20,321 nucleotides of DNA, from UHGV virus genome UHGV-0122335; one strand, written 5' to 3'. The position numbers and the translations under genes are program-made. Below are positions 1 to 16,466 of this stretch, piece after piece. Under the pieces are notes generated by a model. That model was not told the DNA's origin. It saw only the letters and a program-made list of their open reading frames with translations, and ran no database searches. The DNA is from a virus. Position 1 is the stretch's first letter; every line of letters starts with the position of its first letter.

Positions 1-2034
1 AAGATGAGACAAGCCGCCAAATGTCCGGCGCGCCATCTGCCAGTTCGTGGTGGCCACATTCCTGAGGGATGGCGGGACGTTCCTGTTAGCACGAACCACT
101 ACTGCGGTATTGCTGGTTACAGAAATAATGTCGCAACGTAATTCTTTTGACACTTCATCGCCAGTATCAGGATCAGTTCCGGTATAAGGGAACTGTAGTT
201 GCGCGCCGACATCACTACTGGTGAAGTACGCACCACCAGAAACACTGATTGTATATTCCGCACGGTAATCCCATTCACCAGAACCACCAGTGATGGTCAT
301 CGTTCTGTCAGACGTATTTCTTCCATCATAGCTAAGGCCAGAATCAACAAAGAAAGCATCTTCATCGCTGGTAAATAAACGGCTGGACAGTCGCTCGATG
401 TATCTCACTGTTTGCCCGTTAACGGTTCGGTTAATGACGAAATACACCGCATCTTCATTGCCTTCGCTGATACTGCATGTGCTTTCATATTTTCCGGTAC
501 TGGACTGTGGTGCCCATGCAAAAACCTGTTGATCACGCAAATAGGTCATCACCAGTAATTTACCGTCATCACGAATGCAGAAGGCGCTGGAGTAAGGGAC
601 AATAGAGAAGCACCAGTCAACAATGCTGTGCTTCTGAAAAAGATGATTGGCAAGGATAGTAAGGTCGTTCCCCTGATAGCCGTCAACATCGAATGAGTAG
701 GCCAGATCACGGACAACACTGCCTTTCTCCTGGACGAACAGAGCAATATTCGCCACAGCAATTGGTGGGACGTTGCTTGAGCCATTTGATCCCTGAGAGC
801 TGAATGCAAATGATGATGGGGTTAACACTTTGTTCTGGTCGCCGGTGATGACGTACTCACCTCCGGAAGTCAGCGCCACCAGCGAACCAACATCAATCAG
901 GTGGCGGATCTCATTAACCTGACGCCCGGCATAGGTGTAGATAATTCTGTCGTCATCCTGCGTAGGATTGCTTTTGCCAAAATCCTTATAATCCCCGGTA
1001 CGGCTGGCCCAGATAGTCTGAGGGAACGCAGTCGATGCGGCGAAGTAAAGACGTTGTTGATAATAAACAACAGTGCCAGGATAACCATTAACACTGTTCC
1101 AGGCATATTTAGCCCATTTATAGCTGGCATTATCCTCGCCAACGACCTGCGAAGGGATATAGGAAATCACCTCGGCAGTTGCAGTAGTGCCGTTTACAGC
1201 AGTGATACGGGCAATGCCAAAACCACTGTGCAGATACTCCCACTCAATGCCAGTATCATCATCACCGGAGCCGCCCCAGCCATCCCATGATGTGCCTTCT
1301 GTATGCGAAGGGCGCAAAGTGCCTGTTTTGCCTGCTGTAACGGCGCGATAGTAATTACTGTCTGCACGGCGAATATCGCCAATCGACGTACTCTTACTGG
1401 TTTCCCATACCGGCACTGAATCCACTGCAGGCTGTTCCAGATAGAACAATTTGCCTACCTGCTCCGCGCCAAAAATAGAGGCGCTTGCCGTTAACGTAAT
1501 TGTCCCGGTGCTGGCGCTGGCATAAACCGTCACTGACTCGTCAATATTGATATCTTCAAATGGCCCGTTCTTCGTTACCACATCAACCAGTTGCCAGTTG
1601 TCATGCGCGTAGCGGCGCAACTCTTTCGGCGGGTATGCCGGGTGAACCAGCGTAAGCACGTCGGCGCTTTGCGTGAATTTAATTCGGAACAGATCGGCTT
1701 CAGTATATGGCGTGGCAATTTCATAAATAACATTGCTGCTGTTCAGCACCAACGCACCATCTTTGATAACGCGCATGTACTGGTGTCCGAACTCCAGAGC
1801 ATAGGTCTGAACCGTCGAGAACTGGAACGGGATCAGGCGGCATTTCCGATTTGGGTATTTTGCGGCACCGACAAAACGCGTACCTGGTCGATTCTCAACG
1901 CCGCCATACTGCCGCACGATCAACATAGCGCACTTGCGCAATGCCACCTGGTACTTCGCCATGTCGATACGTCCGTACAACGACGGTCCAATCTCACCAC
2001 CGGCAAAGCTGGGCTGGATCCAACTGATAGCCAT
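1..2034 (-). CDS. Large virion/tail structural protein, N-terminal 678 codons (gene continues beyond window start)
   Basis: Scanned the minus-strand frame by hand from ATG at 2034..2032 to position 1 and found no stop codons in 678 codons. Not in the ORF track because it has no stop inside the window. Its ATG overlaps the stop of the upstream 201-aa gene. Position after portal/scaffold/capsid suggests a tail protein; product is inferred from gene order only. Confidence 0.7.
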   Translation of the reverse strand, partial: MAISWIQPSFAGGEIGPSLYGRIDMAKYQVALRKCAMLIVRQYGGVENRPGTRFVGAAKYPNRKCRLIPFQFSTVQTYALEFGHQYMRVIKDGALVLNSSNVIYEIATPYTEADLFRIKFTQSADVLTLVHPAYPPKELRRYAHDNWQLVDVVTKNGPFEDINIDESVTVYASASTGTITLTASASIFGAEQVGKLFYLEQPAVDSVPVWETSKSTSIGDIRRADSNYYRAVTAGKTGTLRPSHTEGTSWDGWGGSGDDDTGIEWEYLHSGFGIARITAVNGTTATAEVISYIPSQVVGEDNASYKWAKYAWNSVNGYPGTVVYYQQRLYFAASTAFPQTIWASRTGDYKDFGKSNPTQDDDRIIYTYAGRQVNEIRHLIDVGSLVALTSGGEYVITGDQNKVLTPSSFAFSSQGSNGSSNVPPIAVANIALFVQEKGSVVRDLAYSFDVDGYQGNDLTILANHLFQKHSIVDWCFSIVPYSSAFCIRDDGKLLVMTYLRDQQVFAWAPQSSTGKYESTCSISEGNEDAVYFVINRTVNGQTVRYIERLSSRLFTSDEDAFFVDSGLSYDGRNTSDRTMTITGGSGEWDYRAEYTISVSGGAYFTSSDVGAQLQFPYTGTDPDTGDEVSKELRCDIISVTSNTAVVVRANRNVPPSLRNVATTNWQMARRTFGGLSHL

Positions 2035-2639
2035 CAGGACAACCTCGCAATGGTAAACTCGTCAACCGGTGGCTGTGGTTCCTGTGATTCATTCTGGCTA
2101 TGCGAGCCAGCACTAAGAATCACGCGATTGTACATATTGAGGGCAAACGTACCGAGGTCTGCATTCCCAGTCAGCGCCATGTTAATGGCTGCCGCAAGAC
2201 GCCAGGCCAACGCCTCCATAAAAATGGCATCAAACATGTTCACATCTGAAACGCGAGATACATACTTGAGCCATGCCTGCGGCTGGTCTGTGTAGATCAA
2301 CTTTCCTGTTCCGTTGGTGTCTGCACCAACTTCGTACTGAACGCGCATTGCTGCTGTTGGATTGCGTACACCAGGAAGCATAATTTCAGTAATGCGCAGA
2401 CAATCGGACGGGTACTGGTACGCATATTCCCAGTCAGGCGGTGGATTGCTCGTATCTGCAAGCGCCACGCGTTTGGTAGCAAAGTTCCAGTCAAAATCAG
2501 AAAGCACAGCATCACGGCAGGCCTCAAAGTGCAGCGAACATTCCCCCGCTTCCTTGCTGGCTTCCGTCAGGCTGTTAATACTGCGGCTGTTGCCAATATT
2601 GGACAGCGCACGATTGCAGATCTCTACTACAGAGGCCAT
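2034..2639 (-). CDS. Putative virion/tail adaptor protein (201 aa)
   Basis: ORF track 201 aa; ATG at 2639..2637 with AGGAG about 12 nt upstream; sits in the morphogenesis module and is coupled to the downstream large gene. Function inferred from position. Confidence 0.55.
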   Translation of the reverse strand: MASVVEICNRALSNIGNSRSINSLTEASKEAGECSLHFEACRDAVLSDFDWNFATKRVALADTSNPPPDWEYAYQYPSDCLRITEIMLPGVRNPTAAMRVQYEVGADTNGTGKLIYTDQPQAWLKYVSRVSDVNMFDAIFMEALAWRLAAAINMALTGNADLGTFALNMYNRVILSAGSHSQNESQEPQPPVDEFTIARLS

Positions 2640-2661
2640 AAGTTTCTATACTCCTGCAATA

Positions 2662-2679
2662 AAGGGGCCGAAGCCCCTT
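2662..2679 (-). other. Intergenic stem-loop (AAGGGGC-cgaa-GCCCCTT) between two virion genes
   Basis: Perfect 7-bp inverted repeat with 4-nt loop in the 56-bp gap between 2639 and 2696. No strong U-tract follows on the minus strand, so it is more likely an mRNA stability or attenuation hairpin than a full terminator. Confidence 0.3.
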
Positions 2680-2695
2680 GTCTGATTCGCGAGGC

Positions 2696-3031
2696 TTACA
2701 CGCCCAGTTCTTTACGCTTATCTGCGATCTTCTCGCGGAGCGTTTCGGCTTTGGCGTTATGGTGTGGCTTCTCGTTAAAGAGCAATTCGTACTCTTCACG
2801 GAGCTTATCCAGTTCACCATCATCTGACACATCGTTGATGATTTTGGTGCTGGTTGCTGCCATTGACACCTTTCCTGCAACTTTTGCTTTTGCCTGTCTG
2901 GCTGCATCGTTAACAGGTTCCAGTGCGCTACCAGGCTCACCTTCGTATTCGATTTCTGCCCCCTCCGGCCACAGAGTGTTATGGATATGAGAGAGGCGCA
3001 GAACGCGGTATCTTGGTTTCTCACCTGACAT
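2696..3031 (-). CDS. Hypothetical virion-module protein (111 aa from ATG 3031; track gives a GTG start at 3040)
   Basis: ORF track 2696..3040; internal ATG at 3031 is preceded by AAGGTGA; lies between capsid-region genes. Confidence 0.5.
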   Translation of the reverse strand: MSGEKPRYRVLRLSHIHNTLWPEGAEIEYEGEPGSALEPVNDAARQAKAKVAGKVSMAATSTKIINDVSDDGELDKLREEYELLFNEKPHHNAKAETLREKIADKRKELGV

Positions 3032-3041
3032 CAATATCACC

Positions 3042-3479
3042 TTAACCAGTTACTTTTGAGCGGATCGGATACGGCGTATTGGCATCAACATCAAGATTGA
3101 TACCCGCAGTGAATTTGCCAGCCGTTAGTGGGCCAGTTGCGACGGAGTAGTTAACACGCAGATATCGCTGAACACCGGCAGGCACCTTTGCAGAAACAAC
3201 TCGCTTACCTGCTGTCAGGGGGGCCTTTGCCAGTGCGCCACTATCATAAATAGTGGACCATGAGCTGTTATTCTCACTCGTCTGCAACTGGATGTTTACA
3301 GTTGCCTCACCACTTGCCGTGGCGGCTTCGTTAACCAGCACCCAAAACTCAAGCGGGTAACCCACACCGATATCGCGACGGTTTCCGTCAATTGGACCGA
3401 GATCGATTACGTCAGTAGAAGCCGCGGTATCAGTTACCGCCTGTGCTTCGGAGAACATCAACAGTTTGTCGGTGATCAT
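3042..3479 (-). CDS. Hypothetical virion protein (145 aa), possible head decoration or accessory protein
   Basis: ORF track; ATG at 3479 with GGAGA upstream; immediately downstream of the major capsid gene. Product inferred from position. Confidence 0.55.
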   Translation of the reverse strand: MITDKLLMFSEAQAVTDTAASTDVIDLGPIDGNRRDIGVGYPLEFWVLVNEAATASGEATVNIQLQTSENNSSWSTIYDSGALAKAPLTAGKRVVSAKVPAGVQRYLRVNYSVATGPLTAGKFTAGINLDVDANTPYPIRSKVTG

Positions 3480-3494
3480 CTTCTTTCTCCATTA

Positions 3495-3514
3495 GTGGGC
3501 CTGTTGCGGCCCAC
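3495..3514 (-). other. Stem-loop immediately after the major capsid gene (GTGGGCC-tgttgc-GGCCCAC)
   Basis: 7-bp perfect inverted repeat 17 nt downstream of the capsid stop codon; no U-run, so probably a stability hairpin or partial terminator. Confidence 0.3.
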
Positions 3515-3530
3515 AGGTTAATAACAGGCG

Positions 3531-4517
3531 TTACACCACGCGGGCTTCTGTTTCCAGAAGTGCGTCAGTTTCACGAATCGGCACACCACGAAGTGCTGTC
3601 CACCATTCGCCTTCTGTCTCTTTCACGCTGATCGCCAGAGAACTCTTCTCCAGAGATTGCAGGTCAAGCACTTCGTTAATGGTTCTGTTCATGTAGAAAA
3701 CAGGACGTCCCATCCCACGATTTGGGATTCGATGAAGGGCACGAATCATCAGTTTTGCGATATTCGCGGCAGTAGAAGGAGCGTCAAGATTACTGACATC
3801 AATGTTTGCGATACGAACTACATAGCGCCAGTCACGTAATGTCAGCCCGTTGTCCCACTTATAATGGGTACGATAACCTTCGTACTTGCCGCCTTTAGCA
3901 TCTTCCAGTGTCACCTGGCCTTTATCTTCCATCTGAATGCCAGCCTTCTGTCCTTTCGGGAAGATGCCATGCACGGTGTTTTCGCCCCACACCACTAACC
4001 AGATTGAAGTGTTATCTGTACCCGTGCCACCAGCATCAATGATGTTCTGAGCATTACCCGCAGACAGGCTGGAATAGCGGGAGGACAGTCCCATAAACTG
4101 CTGAGGGTTAACGCTGGAATCACCGTAAAACAGTGTCTGCGCCATCGCCTGATTCATCGCTTCAATAAATGCTCGGTCTTCAGACAGACGGAATTCGGCA
4201 GTATTACCGTTCAGATCAGCCAGAGACTTATCGACTTCAGCATAGGTTTCCAGCATGCCAATGGAATCGGTGACCTGCACTGTGGTTGATTTGCTTGGCT
4301 GTACGCCATAGTTCAGCAAACGCCAGGTAGCAGAAGGTAAACCAGAACGAATGGTGGTTCGGTGTCCGGTAGGAAGGTTTCCTTCAACAAAAGGCATATC
4401 CTGAAGAATTGGGTTAGTTTGATTGAGAAGCTCGATAATCTTATCGACTTTCCCATTTGGATCGACGCGCTTACCCCAGTCAGCCAGCGTTAGCGCAGTT
4501 AAGCCTTTAACAGACAT
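3531..4517 (-). CDS. Major capsid protein (328 aa)
   Basis: ORF track; ATG at 4517 with strong GGAGGAGA-type RBS; size and position (after portal and an acidic scaffold-like protein) are typical of a major capsid protein. No sequence match was confirmed. Confidence 0.7.
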   Translation of the reverse strand: MSVKGLTALTLADWGKRVDPNGKVDKIIELLNQTNPILQDMPFVEGNLPTGHRTTIRSGLPSATWRLLNYGVQPSKSTTVQVTDSIGMLETYAEVDKSLADLNGNTAEFRLSEDRAFIEAMNQAMAQTLFYGDSSVNPQQFMGLSSRYSSLSAGNAQNIIDAGGTGTDNTSIWLVVWGENTVHGIFPKGQKAGIQMEDKGQVTLEDAKGGKYEGYRTHYKWDNGLTLRDWRYVVRIANIDVSNLDAPSTAANIAKLMIRALHRIPNRGMGRPVFYMNRTINEVLDLQSLEKSSLAISVKETEGEWWTALRGVPIRETDALLETEARVV

Positions 4518-4531
4518 TGTTATCTCCTCTC

Positions 4532-5227
4532 TTATTTGCCATAGAGCACTTCGGCCGCACTACGCTGGCCTTCATTACCACCGGTGACCATGCCATCTTC
4601 AGACATAGCCTTTCCGATTTTCACGAACGTTTTGACCAGATCAGGGTGATTACCCAGCCCGGTGGTGTTCAGATATTCTTTGAGTTCAGGTGTCCCGAAC
4701 TGGTCAAGCGCACGCTGTGCGGCGCTAAGGTTAGAAATCAACTTGTCGCCACCGATTTCTTTGTCAGCTTTTACATCCGCAGCCCACTGCTCGGTTGTTT
4801 TCTGCCAGGCTTCTGCCTGGCGCTGCTGAACACCTGCCAGAATTTTCGGATAAGCATCAACCAGCTTTTGCGCTTGCTCGTTGGTCAGGTTAAGTTCTCG
4901 CGCCACCGGCTCGAACTCCTTCAACGCTTCTGTATCCAGCTCTACGCCTTCGGCAGCCTGAAACTCGTACTTCTCAGGCGCACCCTCTGGTTTATCGCCG
5001 TCCTTTTTTTCATCCTGCTTATCGTTTTCAGGCTTTTTGTCATCAGCAGGTTTATCGCCATCAGCAACAGGTTGTGGCTTATCACCTTCCTGTTGTGATG
5101 GATCACCAACTGGAGCAGGGTTATCACCTGCAGGCGCTGACGGTTCTGACGCAGCCGGAGCTGCTCCACCATCGACTGGTTGCTCATTGCAAAGACGGCG
5201 ATACAGCAAACGCTCAAATAAATTCAT
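4532..5227 (-). CDS. Scaffolding (capsid assembly) protein, acidic and helical (about 231 aa)
   Basis: ORF track 4532..5233; ATG at 5227 with AGGAG 5 nt upstream; highly acidic D/E/K/P-rich N-terminal half; located between portal and capsid genes. Confidence 0.55.
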   Translation of the reverse strand: MNLFERLLYRRLCNEQPVDGGAAPAASEPSAPAGDNPAPVGDPSQQEGDKPQPVADGDKPADDKKPENDKQDEKKDGDKPEGAPEKYEFQAAEGVELDTEALKEFEPVARELNLTNEQAQKLVDAYPKILAGVQQRQAEAWQKTTEQWAADVKADKEIGGDKLISNLSAAQRALDQFGTPELKEYLNTTGLGNHPDLVKTFVKIGKAMSEDGMVTGGNEGQRSAAEVLYGK

Positions 5228-5229
5228 GA

Positions 5230-5526
5230 TCACTCCTGTTCACTGGCCTCTTTGGCCATCTTCAAATACTGTTCAGGGCAATGCGCCATAACGCGCTGAA
5301 ACAGTTCCAGCGCCAGATTGCGTTGCCCCTCATTAAATGCCATTGCCATAGCGTCCATCGGTGAGATAGCGGAAAACACCCGGCCTTTCTCCAGCACAGA
5401 CCAGACAACGCGACGCCCCTGTTCACTGCTCATGACAAAGCGAATGTCATCAATTTCACGCTGTGCCATGTCACGTTGCTTACGGGCGTTTTCTTCTTTC
5501 AGTTGATCGTCTTCGTAATCTGTCAT
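5230..5526 (-). CDS. Hypothetical protein (98 aa) between portal and scaffold
   Basis: ORF track; its ATG overlaps the portal stop (ATGA), suggesting translational coupling. Confidence 0.55.
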   Translation of the reverse strand: MTDYEDDQLKEENARKQRDMAQREIDDIRFVMSSEQGRRVVWSVLEKGRVFSAISPMDAMAMAFNEGQRNLALELFQRVMAHCPEQYLKMAKEASEQE

Positions 5527-7202
5527 TGTGATTGCCCACCCTGACCACTAACTGCATTCGCCATAGCTGACAAAACACTCGGATCCGAAGTTTTAGCTTC
5601 GCTTAGCGTCTTGGCACCCTGTGCCGCCGCCATCCCCATCGCCATCATTTGTTGCTGCTGTTGTTGCTGTGCCCGTTGCTGGCGAGCCTGCTCAACCTGT
5701 TCCTGCGGAACAATGACGGTTGGAGACACTCCGGACATATCAGCGAATGCATCGATCGCCTGATCAACGTTGAGTTTGTCGAAAGCTTCTGGTTTCGCTT
5801 GCGCAAGTTGACCAATGAAGTTAACCGTGGACGCCAGACTGGACAGGCCGATAGACTTCTGCGCCTGAGCCATGACAGAAATGTATTCGACCTTCAGGGG
5901 CATACCTTCCATCGCGTCAGGCGGTGGCGGCAGCATGTTTTTACGCACCATCATCGAGAAAGCGCGGTCAATGAGAGGATTAAGACATTCGTCGTTCAGA
6001 CGCTCCAGAACCGGCCCCAACATCAGAAGCTTTTCTTCTTTCATTTCGATCACCGCTTCAACAGGCATTGAGCGGGTATTGATGTTCTGCAACATCATGA
6101 ACAGATCGACGAAGTAGGCGCTGTTAATGATTTGACGAGTGTCCTGAATGTCTGCCACCAAATCTGCTGTACTGGGGTTAACCAGATAAGCAGGCCTGAA
6201 GCCATCCTGACCAGTAATCTGATCGATATACGTGATGTCGCCAGGAAGAAGGGAGGCGCGCTGATTCTTGAGGGAAGTCGGAGCAACCATCGGCGGATTG
6301 GTGGCTTTATCAATCAACTGCGACTTGCGCTTCTGGAGAAGCTGCAATGCCTTAACAGGTCCAAGCGCCAGCATACCCGGGCATGATGATCCATAAACAT
6401 CTTCGCCGTTAACTTCCCAGCGCGGAGCCATAATTGGAAACTCATCGAATCCGGACTCGCGCAACAACTTGTCGTTATCGCCACCAACCTCGTAATAAAC
6501 CGATTTGAATGGCTTGTTCTTGCTATCCAGCTTCGATGCATCGCGGTCAATGTTCGGGTAAACCGAATGCATCACTTCAATCCACTTCTCGTAGGTGCCG
6601 CTTTCCCACATGCTTTTTACGGATTCGCTGACGTTATTTAGCCCGAACTCCTGAACAAGCTGACGAACAGTCATAGAGAACTTGCGAAAACAGGTGTCCA
6701 CACTGCCACGAGGTGAGTTAGCCAGGTAGTAACTGCCTATCGGGAATGGCATTGTGCGAATGATGTCCTCGTCATCCTCCAGCACTGCCATTGCACCAGT
6801 GCTGTATGTGCCGAGGCTTCCGTATAACTGCGGCAGAGACTGATAGAGATTCGACTTATTGAACATATCGTTCATGCGGTTCTGCACCGCCTCAAGCCAC
6901 AACTTAACAGGGCCATAATCCATCATTTCAGGATCTGGCGTAGCCAGGCGAAACCACGGACGCGCGGGGCTTGTGATGCCTGACATCATGCCGCTGGCGA
7001 GAGTGCGCGCCGCCATAGTCCCGGTCGAATCAATAATACGTGTATTGCGTCGATCGTTACGGTTGACCTCAGAAGTCAGAAAGCGGGAACCACGCGGGTT
7101 GATGTAATCACTCAACTCGCGCCAGTGCGGCTCGAACGATTGACGCTCGCTTTCAAGTTGTGCGAACTGTTTGTTCAATCGCTCTTTAGTTGTTTCCGCC
7201 AT
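5523..7202 (-). CDS. Portal (head-tail connector) protein, 559 aa, with Q/A-rich C-terminal tail
   Basis: ORF track; ATG at 7202 with GGAG RBS; size and position after terL; C-terminal poly-Q/Ala-rich tail resembles T7-type head-tail connector proteins (recollection, not a search). Confidence 0.7.
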   Translation of the reverse strand: MAETTKERLNKQFAQLESERQSFEPHWRELSDYINPRGSRFLTSEVNRNDRRNTRIIDSTGTMAARTLASGMMSGITSPARPWFRLATPDPEMMDYGPVKLWLEAVQNRMNDMFNKSNLYQSLPQLYGSLGTYSTGAMAVLEDDEDIIRTMPFPIGSYYLANSPRGSVDTCFRKFSMTVRQLVQEFGLNNVSESVKSMWESGTYEKWIEVMHSVYPNIDRDASKLDSKNKPFKSVYYEVGGDNDKLLRESGFDEFPIMAPRWEVNGEDVYGSSCPGMLALGPVKALQLLQKRKSQLIDKATNPPMVAPTSLKNQRASLLPGDITYIDQITGQDGFRPAYLVNPSTADLVADIQDTRQIINSAYFVDLFMMLQNINTRSMPVEAVIEMKEEKLLMLGPVLERLNDECLNPLIDRAFSMMVRKNMLPPPPDAMEGMPLKVEYISVMAQAQKSIGLSSLASTVNFIGQLAQAKPEAFDKLNVDQAIDAFADMSGVSPTVIVPQEQVEQARQQRAQQQQQQQMMAMGMAAAQGAKTLSEAKTSDPSVLSAMANAVSGQGGQSQ

Positions 7203-7216
7203 TTCAATGACTCCGG

Positions 7217-7423
7217 TTACTGACCAAGCAGCGTTTTACCGCTGGTATTAGCGGTTGATGTGTCGCCCTGAGAACCGGTAAGCAGCGTAGAACTACGACC
7301 AGCAGCAGCGCGACGGCGACGAGTTTCTTCGTCGCGGGCATCAACAACGGCGGCATCCTGCTCCTGTGGTGCTGCCTGAACTTCTGGTGTTGCAGGCACT
7401 GATGGTGAGCTACCCATGCACAT
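7217..7423 (-). CDS. Small acidic S/T/A-rich hypothetical protein (68 aa) upstream of portal
   Basis: ORF track; ATG at 7423 preceded by GGAGTCATTGAT; stop lies 15 nt before the portal ATG. Confidence 0.45.
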   Translation of the reverse strand: MCMGSSPSVPATPEVQAAPQEQDAAVVDARDEETRRRRAAAGRSSTLLTGSQGDTSTANTSGKTLLGQ

Positions 7424-7491
7424 ATCAATGACTCCGTACGCAATTAAATTATTACCAATTTAACCACATATGATTTATTTATCGTAGACAG

Positions 7492-7520
7492 TTGACATTT
7501 AATGCACGAATTATTACCTT
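7492..7520 (+). promoter_or_regulatory. Candidate sigma70 promoter (TTGACA at 7492-7497 with a weak -10) upstream of the tRNA island
   Basis: Consensus -35 hexamer TTGACA; the downstream -10 is poor (TATTAC/TACCTT region); overlaps the palindrome at 7514..7528. Confidence 0.3.
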
Positions 7521-7528
7521 TAAGGTAA
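7514..7528. repeat. 15-bp near-palindrome TTACCTTTAAGGTAA (copy 1 of 2)
   Basis: Seen directly; a second copy TTACCTTGAAGGTAA lies at 8138..8152; a further palindrome GGTTACTAACC lies at 7545..7555. Confidence 0.5.
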
Positions 7529-7857
7529 CCAAAGAGTTCATTCCGGTTACTAACCTGACTGGCTTGTCGTTAAATTGAACAGGTGGAGTGAGCTTTTATT
7601 TTGAGCAGTACGGCGTATGGCACATGCGACGATAGCGGTCTGGATACGTTTAAGGGGCACCCTCCCTTGCTCGGGCAAACGAACCAGGTAGCCGGAATGT
7701 GCAAGTCGAGCGGTTTTATTCCGCGCACGGGGATTCACCATCCCGGCGATTCGGTGTGACGCCTCGGAAGAGACGAGGGTACAACGATGAGAGCATTGGA
7801 TATTAGCGGGCTGTTCCACCCTACCTGATATCGAGCCAAACCAGTGCTCTCAGCGTT

Positions 7858-7934
7858 GTGGCATTAGCTCAGTTGGACAGAGCAACCGCCTTCTAAGCGG
7901 TTGGTCGCAGGTTCGAATCCTGCATGCCACGCCA
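7858..7934 (+). tRNA. tRNA-Arg (anticodon UCU, reads AGA), CCA encoded
   Basis: Hand-folded cloverleaf: acceptor GTGGCAT/ATGCCAC, D-stem GCTC/GAGC, anticodon stem ACCGC/GCGGT with loop CTTCTAA, T-arm GCAGG-TTCGAAT-CCTGC, discriminator G plus CCA. Phage-borne tRNA-Arg(UCU) is common in lambdoid and Stx-type phages. Confidence 0.9.
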
Positions 7935-7977
7935 GAATCACGCCTAAGGACCGTGATGCCAGAAGTTCCAGGGGATT

Positions 7978-8019
7978 GGCGGTGACTGTTTCCCTTGAAG
8001 GACTATCACCGCCCTTTTT
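7978..8019 (+). terminator. Putative intrinsic terminator downstream of the tRNA
   Basis: GGCGGTGA...TCACCGCC 8-bp stem (long structured loop) followed by CTTTTTTA. Confidence 0.45.
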
Positions 8020-8097
8020 ACAGCAGGACGCCATTGCGATGACTTCATGCTGTAAACCAGTACAGCCACGGAAGGCATAACTCATTGCTTCCAGTTC

Positions 8098-8121
8098 GCC
8101 CGGTTCGCCGGGCATTTTTTT
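8098..8121 (+). terminator. Intrinsic (rho-independent) terminator
   Basis: GCCCGG-ttcg-CCGGGC hairpin followed by ATTTTTTT. Confidence 0.65.
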
Positions 8122-8137
8122 GCCTGGTGACTGAACG

Positions 8138-8152
8138 TTACCTTGAAGGTAA
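8138..8152. repeat. 15-bp near-palindrome TTACCTTGAAGGTAA (copy 2), 33 nt upstream of the moron ATG
   Basis: Seen directly; overlaps a candidate promoter (GTGACT -35 at about 8127, TAAGAT -10 at 8150-8155). Confidence 0.5.
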
Positions 8153-8184
8153 GATAACAAAAACATTTAACATCTGGTTTAGAC

Positions 8185-8790
8185 ATGTTCGAGCAATTTA
8201 AAGAGATCGCATCATCGGCTATTAGCACAGCGTCAGAGAGAGTCCGCAACCCAGCACTTGGGGCATTTGTGTTTTCGTGGTGTTCTTTTAACTGGAATCC
8301 ACTATTATTTTTATTCTTCAGTAAGTCAGGAATTGAAGAAAAAATAAATTATATATCTTCCCATAGTGATGCGTACCACTCACTCTTATATCCAGCTTTA
8401 TGTGCATTCGCGCTGTGTGTAATAGTTCCATGGTTTAACAATATAGTGGTGATGTTTCAAAAAATTCCACTACAGAACATCGATAACTTCAAACACAACA
8501 AAAGCCTCAGGGATGTTAAAAACGCCATAGAATTGCGTAAGCTTGAGGCACAAAGGGACATTACATACGACAGAGTTAAGGTTGAGTTTGAGTCTGAGAT
8601 TCAATTCTATAAAAATGATTTAATCAAGCACCAAGAGTCTTTGAATTCTTTTTTGCAGGAAAGAGATTCCCTTATTGAAAAAATAATGGCGCTTGAAAAA
8701 GAACTTGCAGAAGAAAAAATAAAATCCAATACCAGAATTGCAAATAAGTTTAACTCAAGGAACAATCGCAACACAGACAATGCTGCTTAA
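8185..8790 (+). CDS. AT-rich moron: predicted membrane protein with two hydrophobic segments and a C-terminal coiled-coil (201 aa); function unknown
   Basis: ORF track; strongly AT-rich relative to flanks; opposite strand to the structural operon; hydrophobic stretches LGAFVFSWCSFNWNPLLFLFF and LLYPALCAFALCVIVPWFNNIVVMF followed by a K/E-rich heptad-like region; no obvious SD sequence. Confidence 0.6.
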   Translation: MFEQFKEIASSAISTASERVRNPALGAFVFSWCSFNWNPLLFLFFSKSGIEEKINYISSHSDAYHSLLYPALCAFALCVIVPWFNNIVVMFQKIPLQNIDNFKHNKSLRDVKNAIELRKLEAQRDITYDRVKVEFESEIQFYKNDLIKHQESLNSFLQERDSLIEKIMALEKELAEEKIKSNTRIANKFNSRNNRNTDNAA

Positions 8791-8794
8791 AACT

Positions 8795-10264
8795 TTATGA
8801 AAACGGATCGTACTCAGTAATAGCTTTCCCCTGCTGCTGCCGTGGGTCATTAGTTTTCTTGGCTACCGGGAAGGCGAACGTTAGCAGCAGCGCATCACCT
8901 TTACCCGGCGAACGCCCAAGTCGCTCTTTGATATCTTCCTTCGGTTCGATAACGATTTTACCGTCCACGCGAACTTTGTACTCTGCCGTCGACAGGTCGT
9001 CTGCTGTTTCCTGGTCATCCAGCATCCCGCCCAGCCTCAGCCATGTCTTGCATGAGTTGAACATCTCCCCACGCTTGTTGAGCATCTGCGGGTCAGTAGA
9101 CGCGCCACCGAACGGAACAAGTTGCCATGTACGACCCCAGCCGTCACCGATTGACTTCAGACCAGTTCCGTAACCGAAGTCGATGAACACTGCGTCAGCC
9201 TGGTACTGGTCTTCAAAGTCAGCGATACGCTTCGCCATTATCAGATCGTCAGTGGTCTTGTTGCCAGTCCACAGCACCTTACTGTGCAGCCCCTGCCGCA
9301 GGTATATCACAGCGTCATCAACTCCGGAGTATGCCGGGTCAACGCCGATTATCACCGGAGCATGTGCAACCTGCGCAGCGGTTACCACCCGTTTCATTGC
9401 CTCATCAGTAAGACCGGTAGGGATAAACTGCAATTCAGATGCATCAGGGAATATGCCGCGCACACGGATTTTAACGAAGTCGCTGTCTTCCCCGTAGTCA
9501 TCAACCCATTTCTGCAACTGCTGTTTGTTAGTACCTTCCACCGTCCGGCTGTCAATCTGCGCAGTTTTCCAGCGGTGTTTGTATTTGCGGAAACATTCGC
9601 GAAAACGCCCGGTATTACGTGTAGGGTTTCCGAACGCCACCCAGATAATCTCAGTGTCTTCGTCCGTAAGCGCACCCTCAGCAACTTCCCACACCAGATC
9701 CGCAATGTTCGACGCTTCATCGAATACCACGATGATGCGTTTGCGCTCGTTGTGTAGTCCGGCGAATGCCTCAGTGTTGTGCTCAGACCAGGGGATTGCG
9801 TCAGCTCGCCACCGCTTGTCGTGCCCAGGATCATTGCTGTACATCGCAGTAGCGGTACAGGTAAACCAGTCTTTCGTGATAGCAAGGTTCGACCACTTGA
9901 TAATTTCCGGCCAGGTCTTCGTTCGTAGCTGGTTGTCGGTGTTGGCGGTCACCACGACCTTACAATCCTCGCAAGTGGACATGCCCCAGTTGATCAGCAT
10001 TGAGATGAATGCGGATTTACCAATACCGTGACCAGAAGCGCGTGCCAGCATAAGCGGCTGATAGCGCGTCTCTGGATTCTGCAGGTGATCACGTATCTCT
10101 CGGAACGCATCAGCCTGCCACTGACGTGGGCCGGTAGCATGTGCCAGTTCAGTCCCCTCTTCCCCCCACGGGAACGCATAGAGGGCATAGCCAAGCGGAT
10201 CGTGAGTGAACCCTGCAATATCCTCGATCAACTGCTCTTCAGGAGATAACGCTGTATCTGTCAC
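8795..10264 (-). CDS. Terminase large subunit (489 aa)
   Basis: ORF track; GTG start at 10264 overlapping the terS stop (GTGA) with AGGATGG upstream; size and position immediately downstream of the small subunit and upstream of portal. Confidence 0.8.
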   Translation of the reverse strand: MTDTALSPEEQLIEDIAGFTHDPLGYALYAFPWGEEGTELAHATGPRQWQADAFREIRDHLQNPETRYQPLMLARASGHGIGKSAFISMLINWGMSTCEDCKVVVTANTDNQLRTKTWPEIIKWSNLAITKDWFTCTATAMYSNDPGHDKRWRADAIPWSEHNTEAFAGLHNERKRIIVVFDEASNIADLVWEVAEGALTDEDTEIIWVAFGNPTRNTGRFRECFRKYKHRWKTAQIDSRTVEGTNKQQLQKWVDDYGEDSDFVKIRVRGIFPDASELQFIPTGLTDEAMKRVVTAAQVAHAPVIIGVDPAYSGVDDAVIYLRQGLHSKVLWTGNKTTDDLIMAKRIADFEDQYQADAVFIDFGYGTGLKSIGDGWGRTWQLVPFGGASTDPQMLNKRGEMFNSCKTWLRLGGMLDDQETADDLSTAEYKVRVDGKIVIEPKEDIKERLGRSPGKGDALLLTFAFPVAKKTNDPRQQQGKAITEYDPFS

Positions 10265-10857
10265 TGATTACCATCCTGACGTTCTTTGAGTCGCTTCCTG
10301 GCTGCCGCTATGCGATCAGCAATTGTCACATTCACATTAACATCCAGGCGTTCTTTGAATGCATTGACGTCGACGTGCTTACCAATCAGTTCGAGGTTCT
10401 TCACCTTGTCAGGCCATTTAATTTTTTTGAGAATTGTCTCTATCGAATCCTCGTTCATGTTCATGATGGTCGATGACAGATCAAAGCCACTAAGCGTAGT
10501 GCGCCAGATTTTCGGCCACTCGCGGATTGGCTTAAGGCTCCCATCGTCATTGAGGATATCAATCACGTCCATCTGGTCGATCTCCACCAGGCGCATGAGA
10601 ACGTAATCGGCACTGACGCGCATTCGTTTGTTGCGCTCCTCCATCAACTCGGCAATCCGTTTTTGAATGCGTTCATCGCGCATCATGACACTGGCTTTAA
10701 CTGCCGCTGTATTTGGGGAGAATCCTGCGTTAATCGCTGCCTGAGTCTGGTTTTCAGGCGTTTTGATGTATGACTGGCAATAAGCCTCCTGCATTGCGGT
10801 TAGTGGCTTAAATTGCGTTGATTTGCGTTTATAGGTTTTAGGTTCAGCAGGCATCAT
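10261..10857 (-). CDS. Terminase small subunit (start uncertain: 10857, 10854 or upstream to 10935)
   Basis: ORF track 10261..10935; ATG-ATG at 10857/10854 preceded by GGTGG; basic helical protein directly upstream of and coupled to terL. Confidence 0.6.
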   Translation of the reverse strand: MMPAEPKTYKRKSTQFKPLTAMQEAYCQSYIKTPENQTQAAINAGFSPNTAAVKASVMMRDERIQKRIAELMEERNKRMRVSADYVLMRLVEIDQMDVIDILNDDGSLKPIREWPKIWRTTLSGFDLSSTIMNMNEDSIETILKKIKWPDKVKNLELIGKHVDVNAFKERLDVNVNVTIADRIAAARKRLKERQDGNQ

Positions 10858-10900
10858 AACCACCATGGTAATTGTTACCGTTGTGGTAATAGTACCATGC

Positions 10901-10926
10901 AAAATAAAGCCGCCATAGTTGGCGGC
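10901..10926 (-). terminator. Intrinsic terminator on the minus strand just upstream of terS
   Basis: GCCGCCA-acta-TGGCGGC hairpin followed by UUUAUUUU in the minus-strand transcript. Confidence 0.5.
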
Positions 10927-11010
10927 AGTATTCAAAACCCATCAAATTCATCATGCATAATCTACTCGTGACATGTCACACTATTAATTTCGTTTCATGC
11001 CAGCCTTTAG

Positions 11011-11322
11011 TCACCCAGCATTGCGAGTCACCATTACACGGGCATGAATTAACGGGAACTCTCTCGCCGCACTTACCGCAAAGTTTCTGCTGATCGATTT
11101 TATACGCCCGCGCACACGTGCATCATCCTGGCGGATCAGCAGCGCGATGTACTCGGCCATTTCATAGGGATCGCGACCAGGGCGCCGGGCGGCGCAGTTC
11201 CGCGCCAGCATTTCCTGCTCCTGCTTATCCAGCACCAGTTCAATTTTGCGCTCACCGGCGGCGGACTGCCGAGCGCGCTGCGCGGCTTTGCGTTCTGCGG
11301 GGGATTTAGCCACGAATCGCAC
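11011..11322 (-). CDS. Hypothetical Arg-rich protein (103 aa by track, GTG start with poor RBS)
   Basis: ORF track only; no convincing RBS; lies in the junction region between the early-left genes and terS. Confidence 0.3.
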   Translation of the reverse strand: MRFVAKSPAERKAAQRARQSAAGERKIELVLDKQEQEMLARNCAARRPGRDPYEMAEYIALLIRQDDARVRGRIKSISRNFAVSAAREFPLIHARVMVTRNAG

Positions 11323-11428
11323 TCCACGCCAGATTGATTAATGACTCCCAGGTAATATAAACCCGGATACCAGCAACCAGGCCGAAACCAATCACCATGG
11401 CATAAAGCAGAGCGTTGCACTTGTTCAT
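11306..11428 (-). CDS. Small hydrophobic protein (40 aa), likely membrane peptide
   Basis: Hand-translated (MNKCNALLYAMVIGFGLVAGIRVYITWESLINLAWSAIRG); GGAGG RBS; its ATG overlaps the stop of the upstream DUF551-like gene (TGATG). Below the ORF-track length cutoff. Confidence 0.4.
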   Translation of the reverse strand: MNKCNALLYAMVIGFGLVAGIRVYITWESLINLAWSAIRG

Positions 11429-12195
11429 CACTTCACCTCCTGCGGCGGTTCTGGTAGCGGCATCCAGTGGGTTACTTTCGATGCCGGTTCTTCCCCATCG
11501 TCAGTAACTGCCCACCATTTGTTTCTCGACCAATCGTAATACCCTTCGAAGGTATCGCACTCAGTCCAGCCGTAAGACTTACCCCAACACCAAACATACT
11601 GTTTATCGTTCGGCATTCGCTCACTACAGCTTATCCAACCATCCGGAGTTGCCGGAGTTGGTCCATCGAATTCGGGCATGTCAGGACCTTTTCTGATAGC
11701 TTTAGCCAGCTCCAGCGGGTCATCGTAAAGCCAGTCGCCAGTTTGTGGGTGATTTGCTTCTGCAAGCTGCGCAGCCCATTCAAGACCATCTTTTTGACCT
11801 TGGAGATAATCAAGCGGCAACTCTTCATGATTACTTGCAGGTTCGGCACTATGAAGCATGGCAGCGCGGCAGGCGTTCCAGCCTCTTACCCCTGCAATAG
11901 CGGCAACCGCATCAACCGCGTACATGCTAAGAGGATTAGGAATTGGTTTTTCTTCCGGTACTACTGGCGCTGGAGGGGTGGCGTAGAGTGGAACTCCTCC
12001 CCCTCCACCAGAAAATTCATTGCGAGCGTTATACTCACGACCATCTGCGTCATCACGCATCCACGCCACCGGCTCTGCTTCCAGCGATGCCAGAGCAATT
12101 TCATAAGCACGGCGCTCAATATTGTCTCGCACGTCCAGGCTGCCGATTCGCTCTTTGATTTCTTTAATCAGTTCTTTGTCGGTAAAAGTGGTCAT
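11428..12195 (-). CDS. DUF551-like prophage protein (255 aa; Trp-rich C-terminal domain)
   Basis: ORF track; ATG at 12195 with AAGGAGAG RBS; C-terminal W-rich region (GWISCSERMPNDKQYVWCWGKSYGW...THWMPLPEPP) resembles the DUF551 domain common in lambdoid prophages (recollection). Confidence 0.6.
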   Translation of the reverse strand: MTTFTDKELIKEIKERIGSLDVRDNIERRAYEIALASLEAEPVAWMRDDADGREYNARNEFSGGGGGVPLYATPPAPVVPEEKPIPNPLSMYAVDAVAAIAGVRGWNACRAAMLHSAEPASNHEELPLDYLQGQKDGLEWAAQLAEANHPQTGDWLYDDPLELAKAIRKGPDMPEFDGPTPATPDGWISCSERMPNDKQYVWCWGKSYGWTECDTFEGYYDWSRNKWWAVTDDGEEPASKVTHWMPLPEPPQEVK

Positions 12196-12196
12196 G

Positions 12197-13015
12197 TCAC
12201 TCTCCTTTGATGCGAATGCCAGCGTCAGACATCATATGCAGATACTCAACTGCATCCTGAACCCATTGACCGCCAATCCCGTAATAGCGATGCGTAATGA
12301 TGTCGATAGTTACTAACGGGTCTTGTTCGATTAACTTCCGCAGAAACTCTTCCAGGTCACCAGTGCAGTGCTTGATGACAGGAGTTTTCCCAGGATGGCG
12401 AACAACAAGAAACTGATTTCCGACTTCACGGACTTCGTTGCTTTTCAGTTCTGCAATGCGCTTCTCTGAGGCTTCCAGCTTCTCTCGCATATCGTCAACG
12501 TACTCGACCAGAGAACCGCCAGCAGGAATTTCGCACTCCTCGACCAGTTGGAAGTAGATATCAGCTGCGGCCCGTGTGTTGCTATGCCTAGCGTCGCCCA
12601 TCTCACCTTCACGAAGAGCATCGCGTTCGGCGGTAAGATTGGCTATTTTGCTGTCTTTGCCTTCCAGCTCAACGCGCAGCTTCCCTACCGTTAGCGCAAT
12701 ATCCTCGTTCTCCTGGTCGCGGCGTTTGATGTATTGCTGGTTTCTTTCCCGTTCATCCAGTAATGCCAAGACGGTAGCCGGATTAGCTGCGGCGATGAAT
12801 TCAGCATTGGCCTGCTGTTCCATTTGGAAATCTTCATCGAAACCGCTTTCTGGATGCGCTCCTTCAATTCTGCAAATAGGAATATATCCAGCAACTTCAC
12901 GATGAATTAGCGCATCATCACCATCAAATCGGCTCTCTCCATATTCGAGCGACCATACACCACACGTTGCTTTTTCTGCCTTGGCACGCAGTGCCTGATA
13001 GTCAATCTTGCTCAC
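12197..13015 (-). CDS. Ead/Ea22-like protein (272 aa)
   Basis: ORF track; GTG start at 13015 with AGGAGG 6 nt upstream; central coiled-coil; typical early-left accessory protein of lambdoid phages (family assignment from recollection). Confidence 0.55.
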   Translation of the reverse strand: MSKIDYQALRAKAEKATCGVWSLEYGESRFDGDDALIHREVAGYIPICRIEGAHPESGFDEDFQMEQQANAEFIAAANPATVLALLDERERNQQYIKRRDQENEDIALTVGKLRVELEGKDSKIANLTAERDALREGEMGDARHSNTRAAADIYFQLVEECEIPAGGSLVEYVDDMREKLEASEKRIAELKSNEVREVGNQFLVVRHPGKTPVIKHCTGDLEEFLRKLIEQDPLVTIDIITHRYYGIGGQWVQDAVEYLHMMSDAGIRIKGE

Positions 13016-13089
13016 TGGTTGCCTCCTGCTTTTCTGCCTTCAACACCATGCGAGAACCATCATCCAGCTCCCACGCGATCTCACCACCT

Positions 13090-13239
13090 TCAGCCATGAC
13101 CAGTCGCCTCATTGGTAACATCACGACCTGGATCATTGCCAACGCGCATACGTCCACCTTCAACATCGCGCATTTTTGCCAGCATGATAGTTTTTGATAG
13201 CGGTGAAAAACCAAGCTGTAGTCGTGCTGAATTACTCAC
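13090..13239 (-). CDS. Small hypothetical protein (49 aa, GTG start)
   Basis: Hand-translated; same start context as Ea22 (17-nt repeat CTCACTGGTTGCCTCCT giving AGGAGG, a GTG start and an overlapping upstream TGA). Overlaps the track ORF 13002..13214 in another frame, so only one of the two may be real. Confidence 0.3.
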
Positions 13240-13403
13240 TGGTTGCCTCCTTTGCGCCACGTCGCATTCAGATATCTGTTGTCGTTAACAGAACCGAAAC
13301 TCTTTCTCTTAAGCAATTCCTCTCTCGATGGCATTGGCTTTACGCGTTGGCGAATAATCATTTCTGCCGGAAGAATGCCGGGATTGTATGCAAGTCCTCT
13401 CAT
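13236..13403 (-). CDS. Small hypothetical protein (55 aa)
   Basis: C-terminal part of track ORF 13236..13556; ATG at 13403 preceded by GAGGAA; the longer track version would overlap the upstream 98-aa gene by 143 nt. Confidence 0.45.
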
Positions 13404-13413
13404 GGTAAATTCC

Positions 13414-13710
13414 TCAGTCATTACTGATAGCGCCATAGCGTGAGCGGTAATTACGCAGGCGCGGGTCGATATATTCAGGGAAGTTGGTATATGTGGCTTT
13501 GCGGAATGGTCGGATTGATGTCTGGTAAATTCGCTCGCGTTCTTCTTTCTCTGCAAGCCATATACAATGGCGAAATTCCTTTTCCTCTTTCGTTTCCTGC
13601 GGTAGCGACATTATCCGGTCGTAGTTTTTCCTGAATTTATCCAGCACCTCCGATACGGAATTGCCGGAACAGCGGCGCGGGTCATCCGCACCATACTGAG
13701 GCGCTGGCAT
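13414..13710 (-). CDS. Hypothetical protein (98 aa)
   Basis: ORF track; ATG at 13710 with AGGAG RBS; directly downstream of ssb. Confidence 0.6.
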
Positions 13711-13723
13711 GATTTTCTCCTGA

Positions 13724-14938: not shown

Positions 14939-14946
14939 AATTCACC

Positions 14947-15461: not shown

Positions 15462-15485
15462 GGGTGGTTCCTTATGTTGGTTTTA

Positions 15486-16454: not shown

Positions 16455-16466
16455 ATATCCTCCATC

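Follow-up and report, generated by a model that had tools for sequence, protein, structure and literature searches.

Palindromic 15-mers beside a prophage tRNA gene are probable operators of the Uetakevirus lysogeny repressor Rep

Repressor-binding sites of the Uetakevirus epsilon15 were reportedly predicted by Kropinski et al. in 2007, and the Rep-Ant switch of phage SPC32H and the structure of its Rep (PDB 5D50/5D4Z) are said to have been described by Kim & Ryu in 2013 and by Kim et al. in 2016. Dispersed operators of a single repressor are also known from more distant phages: the C1 operators of P1, which are asymmetric 17-mers, occur across the genome and include Oban/Op72 before the ban operon, and the stoperators of mycobacteriophage L5 block elongation. 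In the Escherichia coli Uetakevirus ZX5, Rep is the key determinant of lysogeny and Ant is its antagonist (PMC9782041). As summarized in PMC9638917, a palindromic site is bound by a tetramer of SPC32H Rep through the DNA-binding domains of two different dimers, and the tetramer is disassembled by Ant.

We analysed a stretch of 20,321 bp of viral DNA (UHGV virus genome UHGV-0122335, here called the window), of which positions 1-11874 are 99.94% identical to phage EC.W1-9. Two 15-mers in this part, sites 1 and 2, had been proposed in the initial annotation to be operator sites for a dimeric regulator, placed over promoters. The coordinates given for them, 7514-7528 and 8138-8152, are correct, and a role as operators of an oligomeric regulator is supported by our analysis, which would now specify the regulator as a Rep of the SPC32H/epsilon15 type. 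We estimate at roughly 0.85 the probability that these palindromes serve as operators for Rep, the lysogeny repressor of Uetakeviruses (epsilon15, phiV10, SPC32H and EC.W1-9), the link between motif and Rep being suggested by GenBank annotation and by the distribution of the motif in genomes.

The 15-mers are not expected by chance. With up to two mismatches allowed, TTACCTTNAAGGTAA has two matches in the whole window (at 7514 and 8138), compared to 0.05 expected from 100 dinucleotide shuffles of the window, and on these shuffle results we dropped a chance origin. Sites 1 and 2 are also the only perfect 7-1-7 palindromes in the window. When the centre is relaxed to TTACC-N5-GGTAA, a third copy is uncovered in the window (site 3, at 10875-10889). 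Each of the three sites matches, at 10 of 10 core positions, the consensus aTTACC-N5(A/T-rich)-GGTAAt that we derived from 32 sites of epsilon15, EC.W1-9 and SPC32H; the outer flanks are A..C for site 1, G..G for site 2 and G..T for site 3, against the A...T of the 17-bp consensus. Given the third copy and its one-mismatch neighbour (Table 1), sites 1 and 2 do not form a pair. Thus, the earlier description of the 15-mers as paired and flanking the tRNA holds insofar as tRNA-Arg(UCU) does lie between them, but not with respect to pairing; their location on either side of the tRNA is incidental, as they belong to separate promoters and to a regulon of ~10-11 dispersed sites. An additional palindrome singled out in the same description, GGTTACTAACC (7545-7555), did not stand up. 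Such 5-1-5 palindromes are at chance level (16 observed in the window versus about 20 expected), and this one is kept in the closest E. coli relatives only, so we dropped it as a further regulatory palindrome.

Table 1. Features of the window around the putative Rep operators (positions are those of the 20,321-bp window)
Feature	Position	Strand	Details
Candidate sigma-70 promoter	7492..7520	+	-35 TTGACA 7492-7497, 17-nt spacer, -10 TACCTT 7515-7520
Putative operator site 1, TTACCTTTAAGGTAA	7514..7528	.	With flanks ATTACC-TTTAA-GGTAAC; over the -10 of the candidate rightward promoter of the ncRNA/tRNA unit
Structured non-coding RNA element, conserved	7609..7857	+	Between promoter and tRNA; final long hairpin abuts the tRNA 5' end
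tRNA-Arg (anticodon UCU)	7858..7934	+	ARAGORN; Rfam tRNA, 73.3 bits
Terminator-like hairpin 1, past the tRNA	7978..8019	+	GGCGGTGA...TCACCGCC, then C and TTTTT; read from sequence
Intrinsic terminator 2	8098..8121	+	GCCCGGTTCGCCGGGC A TTTTTTT; segment shared with phiV10 ends here
Candidate accessory-gene promoter	8127..8155	+	-35 GTGACT 8127-8132, 17-nt spacer, -10 TAAGAT 8150-8155
Putative operator site 2, TTACCTTGAAGGTAA	8138..8152	.	Across spacer and -10 of the candidate promoter that serves the accessory gene
Accessory gene ('moron'), 201 aa	8185..8790	+	phrog_4780, E=6.5e-52; PHROGs family without named function
One-mismatch operator-like site, TAACCACCATGGTAA	10857..10871	.	Directly upstream of the terS ATG
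Putative operator site 3, TTACCGTTGTGGTAA	10875..10889	.	Precedes terS (minus strand, start at 10854) by 21 nt

The genomic distribution of the motif points to Rep. EC.W1-9 carries 11 exact copies of TTACC-N5-GGTAA, compared to 0.04 in shuffles, and 11 of 11 are intergenic; with an intergenic fraction of 8.9% in this genome, placement of all 11 copies in intergenic DNA has a p of about 3e-12. Three of these copies (at 39326, 39388 and 40100) flank rep (39460-40044), an arrangement that is not visible in the window itself. The product of this rep gene matches SPC32H Rep (PDB 5D50) over the full length with E=4e-42, and each Rep chain has two HTH-type domains. Similarly, SPC32H has 10 copies of the motif in the same syntenic places, five of which flank its rep gene, and the ortholog of site 1 (3175-3189) is among these ten shared positions.

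The GenBank record of epsilon15 (AY150271.2) ties the same motif to lysogeny: it contains seven features annotated as 'protein_bind: repressor (lysogeny)', all of which read (A)TTACC-N5-GGTAAT. The likeness of the window to epsilon15 lies in this shared motif, ATTACC-N5-GGTAAT, and in its dispersed intergenic distribution, the epsilon15 sites being known from annotation. One of them, at 2931-2947 (annotated 'repressor, lysogeny'), is the ortholog of site 1. Site 3 has orthologs in both epsilon15 (12-27, an annotated repressor site) and SPC32H (12-26), and its one-mismatch neighbour at 10857-10871 parallels epsilon15 30-44, TTACTTCGGTGGTAA. Site 2 has no ortholog in either phage. Other differences set the loci apart: epsilon15 lacks the tRNA, its copy of the structured RNA is truncated, and its gene past terminator 2 begins at the RBS, without a promoter of its own, while SPC32H lacks the 201-aa gene along with site 2.

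Beyond the Uetakeviruses, the arrangement resembles that of P1 C1 and of mycobacteriophage L5 gp71, in which one repressor acts on many scattered short operators and silences lytic or accessory units directly. The likeness to P1 extends to cargo, in that the C1-controlled ban operon holds tRNA genes and the same structured RNA that lies behind site 1. However, going by their descriptions, the repressor families and operators of P1 and L5 appear unrelated to those considered here. With the cI-Cro switches of lambda and P22 (OL/OR), the system has in common palindromes over promoters and HTH repressors, and the clusters that flank rep in EC.W1-9, SPC32H and epsilon15 are a further likeness to OL/OR, but lambdoid operators are restricted to the immunity region.

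Site 1 is found in a fixed context in all relatives examined. It begins 16 nt past TTGACA (7492-7497), and it starts at this same distance past TTGAC(A/C) across eight named phages (from Escherichia, Salmonella, Klebsiella and Enterobacter) and 33 IMG/VR loci. Throughout this set, the half-sites are invariant and the N5 centre is variable (TTTAA, TTTCA, TTTTA, TTTTT, CTTGA, TTGCA and others). TTGAC is likewise invariant in all relatives, at a fixed distance to the operator, and the sequence of the spacer varies. Site 1 occurs in every relative, with or without the tRNA or the accessory gene; it is kept in the tRNA-less epsilon15, Tyrion and ST11-OXA245phi3.2, and with different downstream genes. 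We infer that site 1 overlies a promoter from the fixed register of candidate hexamers, the exact identity of which is less certain: TACCTT matches the -10 consensus at T1, A2 and T6 only and is thus weak, and a consensus promoter scan gave TAGACA-18-AATTAT (7485-7514) instead, the -35 of which varies among relatives.

Site 2 goes with the accessory gene, whose ATG at 8185 lies 32 nt past the end of the site. The motif (T/C)TACC-N5-GGTA(A/T), 16 nt past a T-run, is present in 8 of 8 related loci that have a phrog_4780-type gene, and the site 2 motif is present in 0 of 20 loci with other genes at the same position. Klebsiella phage BUCT711, for example, has CTACCATAACGGTAT at the place of site 2. 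The phrog_4780 homologs are widely diverged (41.7% identity to the BUCT711 homolog), yet the composite of promoter and operator is kept. The assignment of a separate accessory-gene promoter is putative; its TAAGAT -10 is weak, and a stricter automated promoter scan made no call for it. Relatives share the geometry, with better -10 boxes (GGTATAAT, GGTATACT and GGTAACAT). Homology to phiV10 breaks at 8121/8122, where the T-run of the terminator ends. Site 2 starts 16 bp further on and therefore falls within the variable cassette, where it belongs to the candidate promoter. The 201-aa protein itself is hydrophobic in its N-terminal part and resembles a coiled coil in its C-terminal part; neither Pfam nor NCBIfam placed it in a family, and PADLOC gave no meaningful match.

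We propose that Rep bound to these operators would occlude RNA polymerase. In this model, the rightward promoter for the ~250-nt structured RNA and tRNA-Arg(UCU) is overlapped by site 1 at its -10 and start region, the accessory gene has a promoter of its own in which site 2 takes up the spacer and the beginning of the -10, and site 3, with its weaker neighbour, lies just ahead of terS. Since Rep would block RNA polymerase, these units would be silent in the lysogen, and they would be switched on once Ant inactivates Rep or, after infection, before Rep accumulates; both the occlusion and this timing of expression are predictions. Moreover, with the promoter of the accessory gene built around a Rep operator, we predict that this gene is off in the lysogen and comes on with induction or infection. 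The name 'moron' would here not denote a free-running lysogenic-conversion gene. On the Rep reading, a known repressor gains three or four sites that had no annotation, in a common type of E. coli prophage.

The palindromes flank the tRNA, and the terL-gp3 interval in which they lie is a hot spot where different relatives carry different genes; both observations would suit the earlier suggestion that the palindromes bound an inserted cassette, either as targets or as scars of the site-specific recombinase by which the tRNA and the accessory gene were brought in. When cassette boundaries are compared across relatives, however, the junctions do not map to the 15-mers. The breakpoints of the variable segments are at 8121/8122, ~7645 and ~7990, the latter two being the ends of the tRNA indel relative to epsilon15 and distant from both palindromes; site 1 is present and syntenic whatever the cargo, and the same motif recurs at about 10 other intergenic places, both sides of rep included. 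There is no recombinase gene adjacent to the sites, the neighbouring genes being terL, gp3 and portal; the integrase of the Uetakeviruses is ~25 kb off (EC.W1-9 34301-35551), and in ZX5 and epsilon15 the attP/integrase-binding sites are reported or annotated directly upstream of int. A role in recombination is therefore most improbable in our view, and repressor operators at promoters are a known kind of switch and not a recombination scar. We also consider it very unlikely that the main binder is another protein, such as a Cro-like early protein beside rep or a host factor, and that its role is to fine-tune or roadblock the leftward late transcript, which runs antisense through this region, and not to repress the rightward promoters. 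Cro uses the same operators as the repressor in the classical switches of lambda and P22, and the late operon (terS, terL, gp3 and portal, on the minus strand) must read through sites 1 and 2; in addition, sites 1 and 3 are upstream of gp3 and terS, respectively, and the annotators of epsilon15 put a site with the gp3 upstream region. Binding by Rep is nevertheless compatible with all of this, which would make such a role an added function and not an alternative. Promoter scanning and inspection of the sequence gave no convincing conserved minus-strand promoter for gp3/portal near site 1, and candidate plus-strand -35/-10 elements stand in fixed register with both sites, which speaks for the rightward promoters as the targets.

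The sites also have to be considered with respect to the rest of the contig. Only the Uetakevirus part of the window carries the motif; TTACC-N5-GGTAA is absent from the lambdoid part (11875-20321), even with one mismatch, and the Rep gene is absent from the 20,321-bp window (best tblastn E=0.07). Positions 11611-20321 match lambdoid prophages (99.3% to E. coli EC11 across 11611-15200) and encode N, an S24-type cI, cro and cII, and the lambdoid (P22-like) cI region has inverted repeats of its own, of the AGTAC..GTACT type, at 17915-17934 and 18796-18815. Without the motif in 11875-20321 and with different repeats there, the sites being operators of the window's own cI was dropped. The remark in the initial annotation that the 15-mers are unlike the cI/cro operator candidates is right, yet it misleads, since cI and cro belong to the lambdoid segment; their having been joined to the sites in a low-coverage metagenome contig explains the mismatch, and they are not the relevant regulators. 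If a Uetakevirus late region were truly joined to a lambdoid early/immunity region, no Rep would be made and the palindromes would therefore be functionless relics; in that case, the ncRNA/tRNA and accessory promoters would either be constitutively active or respond only in trans to the Rep of a co-resident Uetakevirus prophage. Such a hybrid is consistent with a crossover within a 264-bp segment of the DUF551 gene that is common to both parents, and the hybrid DUF551 protein is found in two further independent samples. We nonetheless regard orphan operators as unlikely. The contig makes up an entire metagenome node of 20,321 bp, with a coverage of 2.7x, and the join may be an assembly chimera over the shared repeat; where the hybrid protein is found on other contigs, these stop short of any diagnostic lambdoid gene, and the junction is absent from every complete E. 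coli genome and phage record. Indeed, the identical late region lies in a normal Uetakevirus genome with rep, both in EC.W1-9 and in many E. coli prophages. Furthermore, the orphan state would touch this one molecule and not the nature of the sites: the operators in this particular molecule, if the molecule is real, may lack their repressor. In a true Uetakevirus/lambdoid hybrid, the repressor of one prophage could, through these operators, control the accessory genes of another in trans.

The more consequential lead is the adjacent unannotated RNA, which has good covariation support and is found in textbook phages such as P1. Its alignment has 42 consensus pairs, 10 of which show compensatory changes, and 97.4% of cells are paired, compared to 28-46% in slid controls; the observed values were reached by 0 of 500 shuffles. 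Rfam returned just the tRNA, both at the gathering threshold and at E<=10, with no match to the RNA element, and the RNA core sequence had no match in full-text literature searches. Downstream of the tRNA, terminator-like hairpin 1 is conserved among relatives and was not reported by the terminator scan, which has a loop limit of 8. In the ~100 nt conserved between the terminators (8020-8121), we found no covarying structure besides the terminator itself.

Occurrences of the RNA include the Uetakeviruses, with a Rep operator, P1 and P7, Stx and other lambdoid phages, and P4-like islands; in P1/P7, the RNA sits between trnI and ban, inside the C1-controlled ban operon. One tentative reading, which we consider possible, is that a widespread structured RNA of ~250 nt, previously undescribed, is kept by very different phages and satellites under repressor-controlled promoters of their own, often fused to or near tRNA genes, and that the palindrome marks the entry to a conserved lytic-phase RNA function. 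This function would be, for instance, a tRNA-related or anti-defence activity. Of the complete E. coli genomes, about one in four also carries the structured ~250-nt RNA that occurs in the P1 ban operon and in Stx phages.

The paired 15-bp palindromes that flank the tRNA appear to be operators of the lysogeny repressor (Rep) of Uetakevirus, the genus of epsilon15-like podoviruses; based on database annotation and genomic distribution, this assignment to the same Rep operator system as that of epsilon15 and SPC32H is well supported. The epsilon15 GenBank record annotates seven ‘protein_bind: repressor (lysogeny)’ features, all of which, once extracted, read (A)TTACC-N5-GGTAAT, and the feature at 2931-2947 is the positional ortholog of the first palindrome (site 1). 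The complete genome of phage EC.W1-9 contains 11 exact copies of TTACC-N5-GGTAA compared to 0.04 in shuffled genomes, and all 11 are intergenic, compared to an intergenic share of 8.9% of the genome (p ~3e-12). The rep product of EC.W1-9 is homologous to SPC32H Rep over its full length (PDB 5D50, E=4e-42), and SPC32H carries ten motif copies in the same syntenic positions, five of which flank rep. According to a secondary summary (PMC9638917), SPC32H Rep acts as a tetramer on palindromic DNA via the DNA-binding domains of different dimers, and the antirepressor Ant disrupts this tetramer. Overexpression experiments with the E. coli Uetakevirus ZX5 point to the repressor as the key determinant of lysogeny and to the antirepressor as its antagonist (PMC9782041). 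A scheme in which many dispersed operators let one repressor silence single units would resemble P1 C1 and the stoperators of mycobacteriophage L5, and is less like the lambda OL/OR arrangement. The epsilon15 orthologs of site 1 and of a copy before terS (site 3) are already annotated; what is new is the second palindrome (site 2), which is tied to one accessory gene.

Probable Rep operator copies in EC.W1-9 and selected features of the window
Feature	Copies	Position in window	Strand	Location
EC.W1-9 operator	two			downstream of rep, before leftward early operon
EC.W1-9 operator	one			between rep and divergent cro-like gene
EC.W1-9 operator	two			past replication genes
EC.W1-9 operator	one			ahead of terS
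EC.W1-9 operator	one			ahead of tailspike gene
EC.W1-9 operator	two			elsewhere in accessory region
EC.W1-9 operator	two			equal to sites 1 and 2
Conserved structured RNA, unannotated		7609-7857	+	directly upstream of tRNA-Arg
portal		5523-7202	minus	
gp3		7217-7423	minus	
terL		8795-10264	minus	
terS		10261-10854	minus	
Other head and tail genes		within 1-11874	minus	

Both 15-mers lie exactly where the initial annotation placed them, TTACCTTTAAGGTAA at 7514-7528 (site 1) and TTACCTTGAAGGTAA at 8138-8152 (site 2), with tRNA-Arg(UCU) between them at 7858-7934. Allowing up to two mismatches, a search for the 15-mer pattern finds just these two places in the window (mean 0.05 in 100 dinucleotide shuffles), and they are also the only perfect 7-1-7 palindromes there. 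The extra palindrome that had been singled out, GGTTACTAACC (7545-7555), is not notable, since the window has 16 such 5-1-5 palindromes versus ~20 expected, and it is retained solely in the nearest E. coli relatives. When the centre of the motif was relaxed, we found in the window a third exact Rep-type operator that had not been listed, TTACCGTTGTGGTAA at 10875-10889 (site 3), 21 nt upstream of the terS start (10854, minus strand). A one-mismatch copy lies at 10857-10871, directly upstream of the terS start codon, and the two copies are orthologous to epsilon15 sites 12-27 and 30-44.

Across phiV10, epsilon15, SPC32H, three Klebsiella phages, Enterobacter phage Tyrion and 33 IMG/VR loci, the site 1 half-sites TTACC and GGTAA are invariant, the five bases at the centre differ (TTTAA, TTTCA, TTTTA, TTTTT, CTTGA, TTGCA, TTTTC), and a TTGAC(A/C) hexamer always lies 16 nt before the start of the site, with an intervening spacer of varying sequence. 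A protein-binding site held in register with a promoter would be expected to show this pattern. The proposal that the palindromes are regulator operators over promoters is consistent with the match to the annotated epsilon15 repressor sites and the fixed register with candidate promoter hexamers. The candidate rightward promoter at site 1 would use TTGACA (7492-7497) as the -35, a 17-nt spacer and TACCTT (7515-7520) as the -10. This -10 is weak, and an automated promoter scan favoured an alternative that is not conserved, TAGACA-18-AATTAT at 7485-7514; under either choice, the -10 or start region is covered by site 1. We found no convincing conserved candidate for a minus-strand promoter near site 1. 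Between the gp3 start and the site 1 -35 lies an A/T-rich non-coding block, AATTAAATTATTACCAATTTAACCACATATGATTTATTTA (7440-7485), which is almost invariant among Escherichia, Klebsiella and Salmonella phages and could be the gp3 leader, a UP element or the IHF site that is marked in epsilon15.

The initial annotation had also offered a second reading, in which the palindromes are recombination sites that bound an inserted cassette. Homology to phiV10 ends at 8121, the last T of a terminator (8098-8121), and the sequence past this point differs among genomes, with two classes in 32 related IMG/VR loci. In the first class (20 loci), an RBS and start codon follow directly (AAGGTGAGATTATG...), and promoter and operator are absent. 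In the second class (8 loci, one identical to the window), GCyTGrTGACy is followed after 5-6 bases by (T/C)TACC-N5-GGTA(A/T), and in all 8 loci a phrog_4780-family gene lies ~30 nt past the operator. The right half-site of this class merges with the candidate -10, which gives GG-TAAGAT in the window and GG-TATAAT, GG-TATACT or GG-TAACAT in the others, and the proposed -35, (G/A)TGAC(T/C), is 17 nt upstream of the -10. Klebsiella phage BUCT711, with a protein 42% identical to the accessory protein, retains CTACCATAACGGTAT in the same register, and the homolog in a lambdoid Klebsiella phage retains the left half-site alone. Because the operator is kept in register with phrog_4780 genes, even at the divergence of BUCT711, we infer that site 2 belongs to the promoter of the accessory gene itself and is under selection in Uetakeviruses, and we reject its reading as a boundary mark.

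The accessory product of 201 aa is hydrophobic in its N-terminal part and coiled-coil-like in its C-terminal part; searches of the product yielded no assignable function. From its first residue, the full ORF (8185-8790, +) matches phrog_4780, and EC.W1-9 is annotated with this long form, whereas the metagenome gene caller reports only a 112-aa C-terminal product (8452-8790). Upstream, between two terminators, lies an element of ~100 nt (8020-8121, +; GACGCCATTGCGATGAC...GCCCGGTTCGCCGGGCATTTTTTT), which is conserved in Escherichia, Salmonella and Klebsiella Uetakeviruses and has a diverged copy upstream of the phrog_4780 homolog in the lambdoid Klebsiella phage KO-TP1. Since the RBS of the next gene comes right after the terminator in most relatives, this arrangement points to a leader of the attenuator type or a small RNA; we found no covariation in the element beyond the terminator itself. 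On the minus strand at 7864-8166, antisense to both the tRNA and the conserved element, is a 100-aa ORF that several phage records list as a hypothetical protein (PhiV10p04, phrog_4647). It entirely overlaps the tRNA gene, is absent or of other length in relatives, and is probably an annotation artefact spread between records.

The 330 nt from site 1 to the tRNA are not mere spacer, as they contain a conserved core of ~250 nt. Conserved blocks of this RNA include ACGGCrTATGGCACATGyGyCG, AGCGGTCyGG, GGTAGCCGGAATGTGCAAG and CCTCGGAAGAGACGAGG, and it ends in a long hairpin whose base is conserved and whose tip is hypervariable, at times with T-arm-like GGTTCGATTCC hairpins. RNAalifold analysis of 22 diverse sequences gave 42 consensus pairs, of which 10 show compensatory changes; 97.4% of the alignment cells are paired, compared to 28-46% with slid partners, and none of 500 shuffles reached the observed values. 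There was no match in Rfam 15, even at E≤10, and no match to the core sequence in the full texts searched. At least 120 IMG/VR contigs contain an exact 19-mer from the element; among complete E. coli genomes, 1375 of 5426 carry the RNA, under an annotated feature in none. A Rep operator lies upstream in only 33 of 119 IMG/VR contigs; in the remainder, the RNA is found behind other promoters with other palindromes or directly 3' of a tRNA(CAU). The RNA also occurs in Stx phages, mEp460, other lambdoid phages, P1 and P7. In both P1 (71023-71191) and P7 it sits between trnI and ban, an interval that is left unannotated in P1, and thus lies inside the operon under the C1 operator Oban/Op72, which carries trnA and trnT too.

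In a lysogen, Rep bound to sites 1 and 2 would block RNA polymerase at both rightward promoters, and Rep would also occupy the sites ahead of terS. Upon induction, Ant would inactivate Rep, and the ncRNA/tRNA unit and the accessory gene would then be transcribed, convergent with the leftward late operon that crosses the region. The promoter hexamers, the occlusion and the timing of expression in this scheme are inferred.

The window is an entire metagenome contig (ENA ERZ1314698 NODE_438, 20,321 bp, coverage 2.7) with two parents. Positions 1-11874 match Escherichia phage EC.W1-9 at 99.94% identity, in reverse orientation, and phiV10, TL-2011b, ZX5 and other Uetakevirus members at 95-97%. From 11611 on, the window is 99.3% identical to lambdoid (P22-like) prophages and encodes Ea22, anti-RecBCD, SSB, a Rad52-like protein, Kil, CIII, N, an S24-type cI, cro and cII. 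The parents overlap by 264 bp in a DUF551 gene (11611-11874), so that a Uetakevirus late region is joined to a lambdoid pL operon and immunity region. Only this contig shows the full join; contigs of two other samples carry the hybrid DUF551 protein and stop short of the diagnostic lambdoid genes, and the join was not found in complete phage or E. coli genomes. It may be a real recombinant or a low-coverage assembly chimera. If it is real, the operators could be orphaned in this particular molecule, because no rep was found in the window; we consider this quite unlikely. The palindromes had also been described as unlike the cI/cro operator candidates: the motifs do differ, but the comparison was misplaced, because those candidates sit in the lambdoid part. 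There, inverted copies of a 20-nt AGTAC..GTACT sequence at 17915-17934 (pL side) and 18796-18815 (between cI and cro) probably serve as operators for the S24-type cI encoded in the window; they bear no relation to the TTACC-N5-GGTAA motif.
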